Shown: positions 5,119-41,554 of the stretch, in pieces | Numbering within the stretch: the first letter of the stretch is position 1 | Layout of the letters: each line of letters starts with the position of its first letter | Source of the DNA: Octopus vulgaris | Taxonomy: Eukaryota | Length of the DNA: 64,000 nt | Assembly: GCA_951406725.2 (NCBI GenBank) | Contig: OX597814.1 | Coordinates: 83,576,001 to 83,640,000, forward strand | Direction: 5' to 3' | The notes under the pieces: model-generated | Told to the model about the DNA's origin: nothing | Seen by the model: the letters and a program-made list of their open reading frames with translations, nothing else | Database searches by the model: none | Translations under genes and position numbers: made by a program

Positions 5119-5833
5119 GTGTATATATATATATATATATATATATATATATATTTTTATATATCGGAATGGTCAAATTGCCAGTTTAGACAATAAAAAC
5201 ACACGCACTATATATTTGGTGTTATTTTGCTTCAGTGATATTTATTTTTTACATTAATCTTAATCTTATTTCGGCCAAAGTTCTTTCGTCACACTCCTGT
5301 GACCGCATCAGTGGTCCTTTGTTTTCTTCTCACTTACTTGTGTCTCTCCTTACTAACCGTCAGCCATTTTGTATTTCTATTGTATGTCTTCATTTGCGCA
5401 TGCTTATATCTCTATGTGCGTCTATGTTTATTTAGTGTGTGTGGGGGGGGGATGTCTGTAATATTTGTATCTTCTGGTTATATACATTCTTGTAATTTGT
5501 ATTTTGTTTTTGTTGTTGTTGCTTTTGTTCTAATTTTGTTCATGTGTTTACATCCACCCATTATTATCATTACATATGCTTGTATGTATGTATAACAACA
5601 ATATTAGTAATAATAATAATAAATCTAATCGAGAAAAAAAAAAAAAAAAAGAATATACATATACATATATATATATATACATACATATACATATACATAT
5701 ATATATATACATATATACACACACATATACACATATACATATACACATATATACACATATACATACACATAGATATTCATTTCTATTTCTTTAATTACCT
5801 GTGTATTTATTATGTTTGCAGGATCCACTATTG

Positions 5834-7582
5834 TCATATGTTGTGGTGTGCGCTATTGCTCCATTCTAGTTTTCTATTCAGGCTAGGTTTATTTTCTATT
5901 ATATGTGTAGCTTCTGTAATTTGTCTAATTGTTGCATCTGTTCTATGTGTGGACAATATCTTAATCTCTATGTTATTGATTGATCCCCCGTGTTCTTGTT
6001 CGGCGTGTTGGTACAGAATCGATGAGCTTTTACCTTCCTTGAGTTGTCTCCAATGTTCATTCACCCGCTCACCAATGCTTCTTGCAGTTTCCCCTACGTA
6101 TGTTACTGTCTTGTTACTGCATCTTCCCTCTATACATCTTATACTATAGACCACATTTCTGGCTTTACAGTTCGTTTGTGGGCTAAATCTACATACAGTG
6201 CAATAGTTATCCGTACAGAGAGTTCTACTAAAAGGATAGGTTCTACCAATTATAGATCTGATAGGGTTGCCTGGCTTTTCAACAACCTTAATTCTTAGTT
6301 TAAGTTTATCTAGGGTCCTTCTAAAGCGGTACGCTAGTTCACCTCCAGGGGTGGTGTCAACGAACATGACACTCTGGTGATTTATGGCTATCATACCAAG
6401 AGTTGGCCTTCCTTATTTTCTTTTTGTCCTTTCTATAGTGTTCCATGACTTGTTCCTATAGAGTGGGCAAATCCCATTCCTATCATTACATAATATATTA
6501 TCAAATTTCTTCATGGCTCCTTTGTATACTCTGATCCTTTCTTTATGGCTGTAACCTGAGAACTGCATGCGGTGAATGAAATACTGTATGTGTCTCTTTA
6601 ATTCTGTAGGCTCGCACATGCGTGACACATTTCTCATTATTCTGACGAGGTCTGCCATCAAAATATTGAATTTGGCATTGCCCGCAATGGCTGAGTTCCG
6701 GTGGATCAGGTATTTTGAGGCCATAGGTTTTGCATAGTATGAATGAAGGATTTGGGTTTTATTTTTCACAATTTCTAGCCAGAGTTCAGTGTCTAGTACT
6801 GGTAGTCTATGGTTGGGGTGTTTAGTGGGGTAGTCTATTGTGACCTTAATACTCTGGTGGATGGAGTTAGCTATTTGCTGGATGCTCTCCATAGTATTAG
6901 TTTCTATTACTATATCAACCGTACTCTCTTGTGGGGGTGCCTTTACTACTATATTGATATCATCAACATAGCGAGAGTACATGTTTACGAGTATGGATTT
7001 CTGCAGTAGGCATTCTTTAAGCCTTCTGTCCCACCATACCATGAAGAGGTTGGCCACATCACCAGCGATACTAACACCGATGGCTGCCCCCTCGTCCTGG
7101 GCATATATTTTATTATTAAATTTAAATGTGTGGCCTTTTAGGGTAACTCTTATACTAGCTCCTAGTGCATGTGCGATCATTTTCTTTACCTGATGGACAT
7201 TTGCGGGGCTCCGTATGGCTCTGGTCCATCCGCGCCATCTTTCTATATGTGTCTTCCTAGCCATAGAAGTAATTGTAGGCGGTCTACCTCTTAAACATCT
7301 ACTGGGGCAGAAACTACTAAGATTATGTTTATCTAAGTATTCACTATTATATGTCAGTCTAAGTAGGAGGCCCAGTTCTTCTGTGTCGACATTACAGAAC
7401 TCCACCTGGCTCTCGTTGATCATCTCCACGCACTTCTCCACTGCAAAATCTACGTCAATCGATGGGTATAGGGATACCACATCCATGCTACCTACTATAC
7501 ATCCTGTCAAGTCACAAGTTTTGTTACAGTCACTGATCCTGCTTAGGAGATCTTCTGTGCTGTCACATACATCAGGTGACAT
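5834..7582 (-). pseudogene. Mirror copy of the Penelope-like RT-GIY-YIG ORF, broken by a -1/+1 indel pair near 6379-6425
   Basis: Same protein as the plus-strand ORF, plus extra N-terminal residues from the spacer. One A is missing in a homopolymer and one extra C follows; could be mutation or consensus error. Confidence 0.85.
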
Positions 7583-7621
7583 CCTGATTATAGGATCAGT
7601 GACTGTAACAAAACTTGTGAC

Positions 7622-9298
7622 TTGACAGGATGTATAGTAGGTAGCATGGATGTGGTATCCCTATACCCATCGATTGACGTAGATTTTGCAGTGGAGAAGT
7701 GCGTGGAGATGATCAACGAGAGCCAGGTGGAGTTCTGTAATGTCGACACAGAAGAACTGGGCCTCCTACTTAGACTGACATATAATAGTGAATACTTAGA
7801 TAAACATAATCTTAGTAGTTTCTGCCCCAGTAGATGTTTAAGAGGTAGACCGCCTACAATTACTTCTATGGCTAGGAAGACACATATAGAAAGATGGCGC
7901 GGATGGACCAGAGCCATACGGAGCCCCGCAAATGTCCATCAGGTAAAGAAAATGATCGCACATGCACTAGGAGCTAGTATAAGAGTTACCCTAAAAGGCC
8001 ACACATTTAAATTTAATAATAAAATATATGCCCAGGACGAGGGGGCAGCCATCGGTGTTAGTATCGCTGGTGATGTGGCCAACCTCTTCATGGTATGGTG
8101 GGACAGAAGGCTTAAAGAATGCCTACTGCAGAAATCCATACTCGTAAACATGTACTCTCGCTATGTTGATGATATCAATATAGTAGTAAAGGCACCCCCA
8201 CAAGAGAGTACGGTTGATATAGTAATAGAAACTAATACTATGGAGAGCATCCAGCAAATAGCTAACTCCATCCACCAGAGTATTAAGGTCACAATAGACT
8301 ACCCCACTAAACACCCCAACCATAGACTACCAGTACTAGACACTGAACTCTGGCTAGAAATTGTGAAAAATAAAACCCAAATCCTTCATTCATACTATGC
8401 AAAACCTATGGCCTCAAAATACCTGATCCACCGGAACTCAGCCATTGCGGGCAATGCCAAATTCAATATTTTGATGGCAGACCTCGTCAGAATAATGAGA
8501 AATGTGTCACGCATGTGCGAGCCTACAGAATTAAAGAGACACATACAGTATTTCATTCACCGCATGCAGTTCTCAGGTTACAGCCATAAAGAAAGGATCA
8601 GAGTATACAAAGGAGCCATGAAGAAATTTGATAATATATTATGTAATGATAGGAATGGGATTTGCCCACTCTATAGGAACAAGTCATGGAACACTATAGA
8701 AAGGACAAAAAAGAAAATAAGGAAGGCCAACTCTTGGTATGATAGCCATAAATACCAGAGTGTCATGTTCGTTGACACCACCCCTGGAGGTGAACTAGCG
8801 TACCGCTTTAGAAGGACCCTAGATAAACTTAAACTAAGAATTAAGGTTGTTGAAAAGCCAGGCAACCCTATCAGATCTATAATTGGTAGAACCTATCCTT
8901 TTAGTAGAACTCTCTGTACGGATAACTATTGCACTGTATGTAGATTTAGCCCACAAACGAACTGTAAAGCCAGAAATGTGGTCTATAGTATAAGATGTAT
9001 AGAGGGAAGATGCAGTAACAAGACAGTAACATACGTAGGGGAAACTGCAAGAAGCATTGGTGAGCGGGTGAATGAACATTGGAGACAACTCAAGGAAGGT
9101 AAAAGCTCATCGATTCTGTACCAACACGCCGAACAAGAACACGGGGGATCAATCAATAACATAGAGATTAAGATATTGTCCACACATAGAACAGATGCAA
9201 CAATTAGACAAATTACAGAAGCTACACATATAATAGAAAATAAACCTAGCCTGAATAGAAAACTAGAATGGAGCAATAGCGCACACCACAACATATGA
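7622..9298 (+). CDS. Penelope-like RT + Cys-rich linker + C-terminal GIY-YIG endonuclease, 5'-truncated (558 aa uninterrupted)
   Basis: RT motifs [16 protein letters not shown]...ANLFM, RYVDD, LPVLD; CxxxxCxxC linker; GIY-YIG-type NVVYSIRC...[16 protein letters not shown]...E...N. Begins at TTG just before motif A, so there is no native start and the N-terminal RT motifs are missing. Confidence 0.92.
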
Positions 9299-39822: not shown

Positions 39823-39929
39823 CTAAATGAAACCAGTAATCAAAGATTGACACTAGAGTGATATTGGCAAAGTTCAATAATTACAATATAAGTAGTAGTA
39901 GTAGTAGTAGTAGTAGTAGTAGTAGTCGG

Positions 39930-41110
39930 AAGGGGGCAGGAAAAACTACCTGCATCAACTTGCTATAAAAGTAGTGAGTAATTTTACCATGTTTTTATTC
40001 TTAGTACAAGTTTTGAAGAGTGCAGTTCGATTTTAACAGTTATTTTTTCAAAGCTATAATGGAAGTGACAAAGGAGCATATTCGGCCTATTTTGCTTTAT
40101 GAGTTCAATTCAAGGCATCTATGCAACAGAAGCTGTGAGGAATATTTATGCAGTATATGGGGATCAGACAATAAGCATAAACAGTGTCAAAGGTGGTTCT
40201 AGAAATTCTGAGCCAGAAACTACAGTCTAGAAGACAAGCCTCATCCTGGAAGATCTGTAGAACTCATCAAAGATGACCTGCAAACCCTGGTGAAACAAAA
40301 TTCCATCGTAAGTGTTGAGGAACTAACAGAGAAGCTTGGATTTGGTCATGCAACCATTCATTGACACTTGCATGCCATCAGAAAAGTCAGCAAATTGGGT
40401 GAATGAGTTCCTCACAAACTTTCCGTGTCTATTTGGGGGCAGAGAGTGAATGTATGGTCTTCTTTGCTGTTACACTTCACAAGTGAACCTTTTTTGGATT
40501 GAATAGTGACTGGAGACACGAAATGGGTTCTCTATAAAAATGTCAAGCACAAAAGACAATGAGTAGGGAAAGGAGAAACACTAGCATCCCAGGCTAAAGC
40601 ACTGTTACCTGTTTGGTGGGATATGAAAGGTTTAGTCCACTTTGAACTTTTGAATCCAAACCAAATGCTAACAAAGGAGATCTACTGTGAGCAACTTGGG
40701 TGGCACTAGAAGAAAAAAGATCATCTTTGGTTTCAAGATGACAGGTGCTCTTCCATTAGGATAATGATTGCCCACGTACAGTGAGGATGAAAATCCAAAG
40801 GCTGCAGCAGTTTGAAAGGGAAATGATACCCAACCTACCATATTTGCCAGACAATGACCCATCTGACTATCATTTATTCCAGTCTTCAAAATCATTTGGA
40901 CAGAAAAAATATGAATTCTATAGATGAGTCCTGGAAGAATATTTTTCATCATAGACAAGTGAATTTTGGAAGAGGTGTCTTGCAAGTCTACCAGATAGAT
41001 GGAAGAGCTTTGTAGAAAATGAAGGAGAGTATATTTTAGATTAAAAAAGAACTTTGTTTATCTTAATTTTGAAAAATAAAAGAAGTATAAAAAACTGCAT
41101 TATTTATGGG
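39930..41110 (+). mobile_element. Near full-length but inactivated mariner element
   Basis: MEVTKEHIRPILLYEF start, WVPH, IVTGD.KWV.Y, VWWDMKG and later motifs with many stops. Confidence 0.88.
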
Positions 41111-41385
41111 ATTTGAGCATGTCCGTTGCCAGTACTGCCTGACTGGCCCTCGTGCCAGTGGCATGTAAAAGCACCCACTACACTCTCAGAGTGGTTGGCA
41201 TTAGGAAGGGCATCCAACTGTAGAAACTCTGTCAGATCAGATTGGAGCCTAGTGCAGCCATCTGGTTCGCCAGACCTCTGTTAAATTGTCCAACCCATGC
41301 TAGCATGGAAAGTGGACGTTAAACCATGATGATGATGGTATATATATATATATATATATATATATATATATATATATATATGTAT

Positions 41386-41554
41386 ATTTATTATATAGAA
41401 GGAGCTTCTACAGGACTAGAACTGTTTCGAAGATTTCTCTTGAATGAAACAGTTCTAGTCCTGTAGAAGCTCCTTCTATATAATAAATTAATTTTACTCT
41501 GCTATGTATTGAGTACCTTATTTACTGTGGTTAACCCCGAATCAACCCGGGACC
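41386..41554. mobile_element. Mini palindromic element in (TA)n (43 bp perfect arms 41386-41428 / 41446-41488, tail to 41554)
   Basis: Perfect inverted arms, 17 nt spacer, 66 nt unpaired tail, TA-type repeats on both sides. Confidence 0.7.

Follow-up and report, generated by a model that had tools for sequence, protein, structure and literature searches.

Penelope-type elements (PLEs) have been described with an inverted 5'-truncated copy, a tail on one side only, (TA)n targets and paired hammerhead ribozymes (PMC8557442, PMC3846280, PMC11167929, PMC4209133). The route by which their inverted repeats form has been stated to be unresolved (PMC8557442). In Schistosoma mansoni, pairs of minimal hammerheads located on opposite strands 100-700 bp apart were ascribed to truncated PLEs (Cervera and de la Pena 2014; PMC4209133), and an extra nucleotide before helix II together with a U3-A8 core are known features of PLE hammerheads (same source). 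In vitro, the protein of a Poseidon PLE cuts the two strands of an AT-rich target and extends each of them. It is predicted to act as a dimer, and its reverse transcriptase (RT) starts at two RNA sites, the spacing between which corresponds to the tail (PMC11167929). A route via an antisense template has been proposed for the Adineta Penelope, and self-priming for head-to-head repeats (PMC3846280).

The Octopus vulgaris DNA analysed here, a window of 64 kb, includes three head-to-head inverted fold-backs, E1, E2 and E3, with spacers of 17-51 nt and one-sided tails of 48-69 nt. DNA of the (TA)n type flanks each of them on both sides, as expected for (TA)n targeting, the right flank of E3 being a degenerate (AT)n minisatellite, and any target site duplication (TSD) would be masked by these repeats. 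The window contains 23 TA tracts of at least 8 units, and ~1% of random points would lie no more than 15 nt from the edge of a tract. Among the 14 inverted pairs listed (up to 600 nt apart), those that are head to head with TA at both outer ends are E1, E2 and E3. A sequence-only reading had correctly located the three fold-backs with their TA flanks, spacers and one-sided tails, though its tail range of 50-65 nt was too narrow. It had also seen no sequence similarity among them. This is borne out at the level of alignment, where six pairwise comparisons gave no score above the shuffled background (17-191 of 200 shuffles scored equally high), but not at the level of RNA, where the three have a hammerhead ribozyme motif in common, either whole or cut off. 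No full-length PLE copy was found within the 64 kb.

E1 lies between a left TA target tract (5122-5164) and a right (TA)n tract (10039-10096). It consists of a tail-less inverted copy of the 3' part of a PLE on the minus strand (5165-7591), made up of an arm (5165-7540) and a 51-nt spacer (7541-7591), followed on the plus strand by the right, tailed arm (7592-9971) and an unpaired tail (9972-10038), which is 67 nt long in this narrow reading of the arms. Counting the last 14 nt of the left tract, which are AT-rich, as arm moves the arm limits to 5151-7540 and 7592-9984 and shortens the tail to 54 nt. The two arms are 99% identical, differing by four substitutions and four small indels. A-to-I editing of the template was considered as the origin of these differences and rejected, because none is A/G in the sense orientation.

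The tailed arm carries a 5'-truncated ORF (7592-9298, plus strand) that is open to the stop codon, and the reading frame of 572 codons brings together RT motifs A, B' and C and the sequence VVY-x-YVGET. A CX4CX2C linker between the RT and the endonuclease is found at residue 442, and the GIY-YIG endonuclease has a CCHH arrangement, with two Cys within the GIY-YIG core and the His residues downstream. The protein has 208 homologues, the best being an Octopus vulgaris protein that is 98% identical. Of the 117 homologues having the YxGE motif, 104 share the linker, and DKS replaces the typical DKG in 54 of 68 motif matches among the relatives. The Pfam profile RVT_1 matched weakly (E 1e-3), while the GIY-YIG profile had no match in E1 but matched the homologue P0072. 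As judged by these motifs, E1 encodes a 5'-truncated RT/Zn-finger/GIY-YIG protein of the Neptune type; the Hydra clade is disfavoured given the presence of CCHH and the form of the linker (PMC8557442). The Penelope-type origin previously claimed for all three fold-backs was thereby established for E1 from its ORF.

The spacer of E1 carries on the RT frame, its minus-strand translation agreeing residue for residue with protein P0001, and the comparison with this protein, rather than with DNA, points to a probable 3-nt microhomology (7592-7594) common to both truncated copies at the junction. A pair of frameshifts (-1/+1) lies near 6425 and 6379 in the tail-less copy. Downstream of the ORF, a minimal hammerhead motif (9816-9864, plus strand, core at 9824) has an extra nucleotide before helix II and a 6-bp helix II, and its mirror copy is at 5311 on the minus strand. 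The same order of ORF, minimal hammerhead, ~55 nt and (TA)n was seen in an unrelated marine contig, L001, which has a 42% relative.

E2 follows (TA)n at 19149-19187 and consists of a tail-less arm of 184 bp (19188-19371, minus strand, hammerhead core at 19314), a 17-nt spacer (19372-19388), a tailed arm of 188 bp (19389-19576, plus strand) and a 48-nt tail (19577-19624), with (TA)n again at 19625-19656. The arms differ by a 6-nt indel, and no further copies were found in the window. The tailed arm carries a minimal hammerhead at 19452 with the U3-A8 core variant (PMC4209133). A relaxed hammerhead descriptor, composed after the motifs had been seen, gave four matches on the two strands of the 64 kb, every one in the arms of E1 or E2, and 0-2 matches in each of 20 shuffles. 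Hence, PLE-type minimal hammerhead motifs are predicted in both arms of E1 and of E2, and their polarity in E2, like that of the motif in E3, is the same as in E1. An Rfam search with E up to 10 found no hammerhead family among the 150 listed of 152 matches, nearly all of which were microsatellites or hairpin look-alikes of miRNAs below the gathering score; the motif calls therefore rest on the custom descriptor and manual pairing.

E3 follows (TA)n at 41339-41381. Its tail-less arm of 43 bp (41386-41428, minus strand) begins at the GAAA of a hammerhead and is complementary at 43 of 43 positions to the tailed arm (41446-41488), which together with the 17-nt spacer occupies 41429-41488 on the plus strand. 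A 69-nt tail with a terminal stem-loop (41489-41557) leads into the degenerate (AT)n tract; the sequence-only reading had the correct start but ended E3 at 41554. The tailed arm is truncated inside the core of a type I hammerhead motif, the remnant comprising helix III (41449-41452 with 41461-41464), a GUA site (41463-41465) and the 3' strand of helix I (41466-41471). A ribozyme with a minus-strand helix II and a UC site was also considered, and was ruled out by the plus-strand core, the GUA site and the longer helix III.

The E3 family was examined in contigs of four public runs, three of DNA type from different studies and one (X12) presumed to be RNA, using loose ends of up to 30 letters and a compared stretch able to show shorter arms only. 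In all four runs, loose ends 5' of 41429 and 41432 provide, in two variants, what the core lacks on its 5' side, and bring a helix I strand complementary to 41466-41471. A hammerhead in the terminal repeat is thus predicted for E3 from loose ends and pairing, as it is for E1 and E2 from the descriptor. Among the loose ends listed, which leave out 64 more, (TA)n stands behind 41487-41492 in all four runs and behind 41558-41559 in two, giving the family two fixed 3' ends that each adjoin (TA)n. Ten further inverted junctions have tail-less arms of 21-39 nt, with 1-3 added bases in three of them; each was seen with sides of just 20-28 letters in one contig per run, the intervening bases being unknown in six. 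The overhang is on the tail-less side in eight of these joints, on the tailed side in one and equal in one, and in three the tailed side begins within the tail, leaving no stem. In the window itself, the tail-less arm of E1 and the tailed arm of E3 carry the overhang. Central deletions of palindromes could mimic such joints. An E3 28-mer had no match in metagenome contigs, and the hammerhead and E3 pattern gave nine matches in viral contigs, all by chance and alike over at most 17 nt.

Taken together, E1, E2 and E3 are likely to be 5'-truncated insertions of three different EN+ PLE families, made by two-strand priming at cut (TA)n with the cDNAs joined head to head. For E1, the basis is the Neptune-type RT and GIY-YIG ORF, the hammerhead motif downstream and (TA)n at both ends, while hammerheads, tail and target suggest a Penelope-type origin for E2 and E3. 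Priming from the distal site on one strand would produce the tailed arm, and priming from the proximal site on the other the tail-less arm. The two cDNAs would halt at nearby positions and be joined through microhomology or with a few bases added. The spacer would then represent the overhang of the farther-extended cDNA, and the arm length the distance covered by both. E2 and E3 may have arisen by early termination, either from autonomous PLEs or from non-autonomous derivatives that bear a hammerhead, and read-through of any copy is predicted to give a near-perfect dsRNA hairpin. The single pathway postulated earlier would hold as a mechanism, one in use by several unrelated families. Tails of 48-69 nt, which exceed the published 30-40 nt, count against the PLE reading.

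That the pathway routinely yields hairpins, as had also been postulated, is only partly supported, because F4, a fourth family in the window that abuts TA and has hammerhead-like motifs, is single-armed in all four copies. Copy a (19657-19877, plus strand) lies between two TA tracts and has a hammerhead-like motif and no inverted partner, and copy d (62748-62886, plus strand, motif at 62760) has its 3' end on (TA)n. Copies c (plus strand) and b (minus strand), at 42070-42449, are placed tail to tail around (TA)n at 42202-42247 and form an imperfect inverted repeat of 83% identity, with a geometry opposite to that of E1-E3. No RT and GIY-YIG ORF could be tied to E2 or E3. When peptides from the tails (or pLTR) of E2 and E3 were compared with the N-termini of 40 long homologues, none scored above shuffles; among the 12 frames tested, two from F4 stood at 0-1 of 30 shuffles with scores of 36-41 and were taken as noise.

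In the two-strand model, the end points of the two cDNAs lie 17-51 nt apart while the arms measure 43-2380 bp, and coupling has therefore to be assumed. Independent cDNAs alone do not account for such nearby stops, whereas fold-back accounts for them naturally. An alternative, which we consider improbable, is that the elements are PLEs but the second arm was self-primed. A cDNA or antisense template would have folded back near its end and been copied, and the spacer would be its loop. This alternative would fit the near-equal arm lengths at every scale and the inner 2.35 kb of the two arms of E1, which show no substitution, and has a precedent in the proposal for head-to-head repeats (PMC3846280). 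However, such a copy cannot outrun its template, yet E1 has the overhang on its tail-less arm and the tail on the other; the E1 arms also differ by 2-4 substitutions at their outer ends, and the E2 arms by the indel. The stem-less joints in three of the ten E3-family junctions are not expected of simple fold-back copying, and so favour two-strand priming.

We regard it as very unlikely that E2 and E3 are instead MITEs, transposons of the foldback DNA type or Helitron2-type elements whose inverted repeats are asymmetric, and that they have the TA target in common with E1 by chance. Both are short, palindromic, non-coding and TA-flanked, and the E3 tail terminates in a stem-loop, but their termini are asymmetric, with the 48-nt and 69-nt tails outside the repeat on one side only, and E2 carries a full PLE-type hammerhead in the polarity of E1. 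E3 is truncated within a ribozyme core that its family completes. The exact E3 junction has a summed depth of 80-1121 in the three DNA-type runs against 5-115 for most single joints, so similar junctions may recur; it nevertheless makes up at most 0.1% of the summed depth of the arm, which is not a copy number. Given the fixed 3' ends and the inverted junctions of differing arm length, the E3 family is not a fixed-length MITE, and a MITE-type reading of E3 is already disfavoured. Arm length thus varies while the tail end stays fixed, as had been anticipated, and the fixed length and symmetric TIRs named as evidence to the contrary were not seen for E3. We give hardly any credence to assembly artefacts (fold-back chimeric long reads) or later palindrome rearrangements, which would explain the near-identical inner arms of E1 but not the unique flanks on either side, the different ends of the two arms or, for E3 only, contigs spanning E3-like inverted junctions in three DNA-type runs from different studies.

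The hyper-editing signal of octopus ranks among the top two, and the octopus share of loci forming near-perfect dsRNA is exceptionally high (4.4e-3), though octopus was outside the repeat-class analysis (PMC5625713). The octopus PLE hairpins are candidates for part of this dsRNA substrate. A literature search at the level of titles and abstract openings found no report tying PLE hairpins to cephalopod editing or to mis-annotation as MITEs. It is rather doubtful, though conceivable, that two-strand priming by (TA)n-targeted PLEs seeds Octopus genomes with thousands of perfect micro-hairpins, many labelled MITE, unclassified TIR or SINE in libraries, that these are a principal source of hyper-edited dsRNA, and that their junctions settle the PLE inversion route. 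If so, the spectrum of junctions, with overhangs on either arm and stem-less inversions, would be a genomic read-out of the process that forms PLE inverted repeats. Short and very abundant, a family such as that of E3 offers many junctions for telling two-strand priming from self-priming. For curation, a short palindrome that is flanked by TA and carries a hammerhead and a tail on one side only should be considered a PLE fragment, not a MITE.

The sequence-only reading had proposed an undescribed system. This is not upheld, because the inverted copy, tail, (TA)n targeting and hammerhead pairs are already published for PLEs in the sources cited at the outset, and the octopus fold-backs are a clean example of that insertion structure. 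The three families may already stand in the repeat library of PMC13282606. New in this analysis are the predicted hammerheads in both arms of E1 and E2, and the truncation of E3 in a putative type I hammerhead that public contigs complete. Neptune/Nematis EN+ PLEs are alike in the C-terminal GIY-YIG, the CX2-5CxxC linker and CCHH (Arkhipova 2006, as cited in Craig et al. 2021, PMC8557442), and in 5' truncation, a 5' end occupied by an inverted truncated copy, a tail on one end only, a terminal-repeat hammerhead, microsatellite targeting and TSDs masked by the repeat (PMC8557442). The octopus insertions differ in their longer tails, in consisting of nothing but two head-to-head truncated copies with arms down to 43 bp, and in the prevalence of DKS among the relatives of E1. 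E2, with two U3-A8 minimal hammerheads on opposite strands ~140 bp apart, matches the S. mansoni pairs (PMC4209133), whereas E3, with its 4-bp helix III, palindromic loop and weak helix II, is nearer the canonical type I than the minimal type. Non-LTR retrozymes (PMC7229834; bioRxiv 10.64898/2026.07.22.740005), thought to be non-autonomous PLE derivatives, are likewise short and non-coding with a type I hammerhead, but form head-to-tail tandems and circular RNA; E2 and E3 are head to head, truncated and tailed, and no head-to-tail tandem hammerhead units were found at their loci. Inverted-repeat copies of Drosophila Penelope that give rise to siRNA (PMC3681739) are a precedent for PLE inverted repeats as a source of dsRNA, and an edited lizard Penelope and palindromic Xenopus Harbinger (PMC5625713) for palindromic repeats as ADAR substrates. 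Poseidon PAc of Anolis carolinensis (Frangieh et al. 2024; PMC11167929) belongs to another clade than E1 and is without the Zn-finger linker, but shares the AT-rich target with both strands cut and extended, and its two RT start sites bounding the tail have their counterpart in the E3 family's pair of fixed 3' ends.

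Three head-to-head fold-back elements, each with two inverted arms, a spacer and a tail on one arm only, are present in the window, and their coordinates could be refined. E1 has arms at 5165-7540 and 7592-9971, a 51-nt spacer and a 67-nt tail ending at 10038 (54 nt when the AT-rich 14 nt adjoining the TA tract are counted as arm). In E2, arms at 19188-19371 and 19389-19576 are separated by 17 nt and the tail is 48 nt long, and E3 consists of arms at 41386-41428 and 41446-41488, a 17-nt spacer and a 69-nt tail. TA-type DNA flanks all three elements on both sides. As the window holds 23 TA tracts of at least 8 units and ~1% of its positions lie within 15 nt of a tract edge, the location of six element ends at such tracts is not due to chance. 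The sequence-only reading had noted no similarity among the three, and in six pairwise comparisons none aligned better than shuffles.

Other repeats were also seen. The left TA tract of E3 directly follows a SINE-like repeat (41115-41338), which, like another at 54221-54530, ends in (ATG)n and adjoins a TA tract; the copy at 54221 includes an internal tandem of 67 nt. An older inverted repeat at 44529-45402, which lacks TA flanks, may be a genuine TIR element or MITE; its arms, of about 210 bp and 42 bp, are 82-95% similar and enclose a centre of about 300 nt. Isolated short palindromes of 36-39 nt (11361-11399 and 16499-16534) are without TA flanks or tails, and a minisatellite (32-bp unit, 6.4 copies) lies at 27050-27252.

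The right arm of E1 carries a reading frame that is open from the junction through to a stop at 9298 and encodes reverse transcriptase (RT) motifs A, B' and C, a CX4CX2C linker and a GIY-YIG domain with CCHH. Tests of membership placed E1 among the endonuclease-bearing (EN+) Penelope-like elements (PLEs). The best of 208 protein homologues, an Octopus vulgaris protein with 98% identity, is longer than the E1 product by about 290 residues at the N-terminus, so that E1 is a PLE truncated at its 5' end. From the motifs that passages of PMC8557442 give as diagnostic, it is predicted to be of the Neptune/Nematis type. The ORF copies in both arms point outward from the centre, and the 51-nt spacer is coding sequence belonging to the tail-less arm; as judged from the protein sequence, the junction probably includes a 3-nt microhomology. 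Of the words sampled from E1, 72-91% were present in 20 of 24 listed public runs, under four organism labels. The four substitutions between the E1 arms all fall within the outer 40 nt (5156-5190 versus 9945-9979), with none in the inner 2.35 kb; two of the four may be target DNA, and the pattern suggests that the outer end was repaired or copied from another template.

With a relaxed hammerhead descriptor, both strands of the 64 kb yielded four matches, one per arm in E1 and E2. Each of 20 local shuffles yielded 0-2, a figure that is only indicative, the descriptor having been composed after the motifs were seen. All four motifs are directed outward, like the E1 ORF. The extra nucleotide before helix II in E1 and the U3-A8 core in E2 are both known from PLE hammerheads in passages of PMC4209133, which also note opposite-strand pairs spaced 100-700 bp. 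Rfam found no hammerhead family in the window. An unrelated marine metagenome contig (L001), from a survey in which 2 of 33 candidate stretches were confirmed, encodes a relative (42%) of the E1 protein, the ORF being followed by a minimal hammerhead, about 55 nt and (TA)n. At 1682-1790 of this contig, the hammerhead and (TA)n tract are followed by other sequence.

For E3 only, window positions 41384-41560 were compared at 85% likeness with contigs of four public runs, and 811-8156 contigs per run were placed on E3 in the three large runs and 94 in the small one. In the window, E3 holds only a GAAA-containing hammerhead fragment, and the core was expected beforehand further upstream. In all four runs, the sequence found upstream of 41429 and 41432 in loose ends completes a CUGA(A/U)GA core and provides the strand of helix I that can pair with 41466-41471. 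The window itself contains helix III (41449-52 with 41461-64) and the GUA site (41463-65); helix II is weak. The missing core being supplied by these loose ends, E3 is truncated within a predicted hammerhead ribozyme, and its 17-nt spacer is part of the tailed arm. The family, found in runs of two organism labels, occurs with at least two versions of the core, in which the variable position is A or U (41429-41445), and its upstream sequence is heterogeneous, with an agreement of 0.63-0.87 for most rows, which points to several subfamilies.

Loose ends in (TA)n occur behind 41487-41492 in all four runs and, among the loose ends listed, behind 41558-59 in two of four; the family has two fixed 3' ends, one where the arm stops and one where the tail does. 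At least ten other inverted junctions, with tail-less arms of 21-39 nt, bear out for this family the proposal that arm length varies while the tail end is fixed. Of ten junctions, with sides of 20-28 letters from one contig per run and intervening bases unknown in six, eight have the overhang on the tail-less side and one on the tailed side, and one is equal; in three the tailed side begins inside the tail, leaving no stem. Only arms shorter than those of E3 can be revealed by this comparison, and some of the joints may have arisen by later deletion. The exact window junction represents a small minority of the family, with a summed depth, which is not copy number, of 80-1121 versus 0.5-1.1 million in the arm (three large runs).

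A fourth TA-abutting family (F4) served as a control for hairpin formation. Its four copies in the window (19657-19877, 42070-42201 and 62748-62886 on the forward strand, 42248-42449 on the reverse) are 80-93% alike. In each, the 3' end abuts a TA tract, the 5' end varies and a hammerhead-like motif of variant core is present; U replaces the conserved A6 in all four, and loop III is CG. None has a head-to-head partner in the window, so hairpins are one outcome and not the rule for every family. The claim that the pathway routinely yields hairpins is partly supported, F4 being single-armed in all four copies. The copies at 42070-42449 lie tail-to-tail around (TA)23, probably as two separate insertions into one microsatellite, and form an inverted repeat (83% identical) by a second route. 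The copy at 19657 shares its left TA tract with the E2 tail end.

Anatomy, polarity, the two 3' ends and the variable junctions make up the observed part of the mechanism. According to passages of PMC11167929, purified PLE protein cuts and extends AT-rich DNA on both strands, is predicted to form a dimer, and has two start sites that delimit the tail. Each start site would prime one target strand, and the two cDNAs would end near each other and then be joined head to head. Such two-strand priming would account for a tail on one arm only, for overhangs that occur on either arm, for junctions without a stem and for small inter-arm differences; near-equal arms would require coupling between the two RTs. 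Equal arms are accounted for by self-priming of a PLE (described in part of PMC3846280), but this fails for E1, in which the overhang is on the arm opposite the tail, and it is considered unlikely. A DNA-transposon origin of the small elements is highly improbable, and an artefact is the least probable explanation of the fold-backs. A PLE origin of all three elements with two-strand priming is favoured as the likely explanation.

Such hairpins had also been proposed as a dsRNA source for A-to-I editing. Passages of PMC3681739 describe Drosophila siRNAs matching Penelope inverted regions, and those of PMC5625713 report a heavily edited lizard Penelope and, for octopus, a share of near-perfect dsRNA loci that is exceptionally high and is given there without repeat-class assignment. 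Repeat-directed editing in cephalopods is already known (parts of PMC9068888 and bioRxiv 2020.01.19.911685), and the relevant passages of PMC9068888 make no mention of Penelope. That PLE hairpins feed octopus RNA editing is a plausible hypothesis, of low probability.

The O. vulgaris repeat annotation in PMC13282606 includes 31 recently active Penelope-like families; the words palindrome and editing are absent from the main part of its text. Its recently active families also comprise 65 of MITEs, 49 of unclassified TIR elements and 893 of unclassified SINEs, in which mis-annotated copies of such hairpins could be sought. The Penelope-type assignment was largely correct, E1 by its RT and GIY-YIG ORF with the CX4CX2C linker and CCHH, E2 and E3 by resemblance to PLE fragments, as which these two candidates appear to work. 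The system is, however, not undescribed: passages of PMC8557442 list as general PLE features a 5'-truncated copy in inverted orientation at the 5' end, a one-sided tail of 30-40 bp and the targeting of (TA)n, and the first two recur in those of the curation guide PMC8969392. Retrozymes (parts of PMC7229834 and bioRxiv 2026.07.22.740005) are arranged head-to-tail, whereas E2 and E3 are head-to-head. Differences from the published PLE structure are modest, and consist of longer tails (48-69 nt versus 30-40 bp), arms down to 43 bp, and a very abundant family, that of E3, with a longer helix III.
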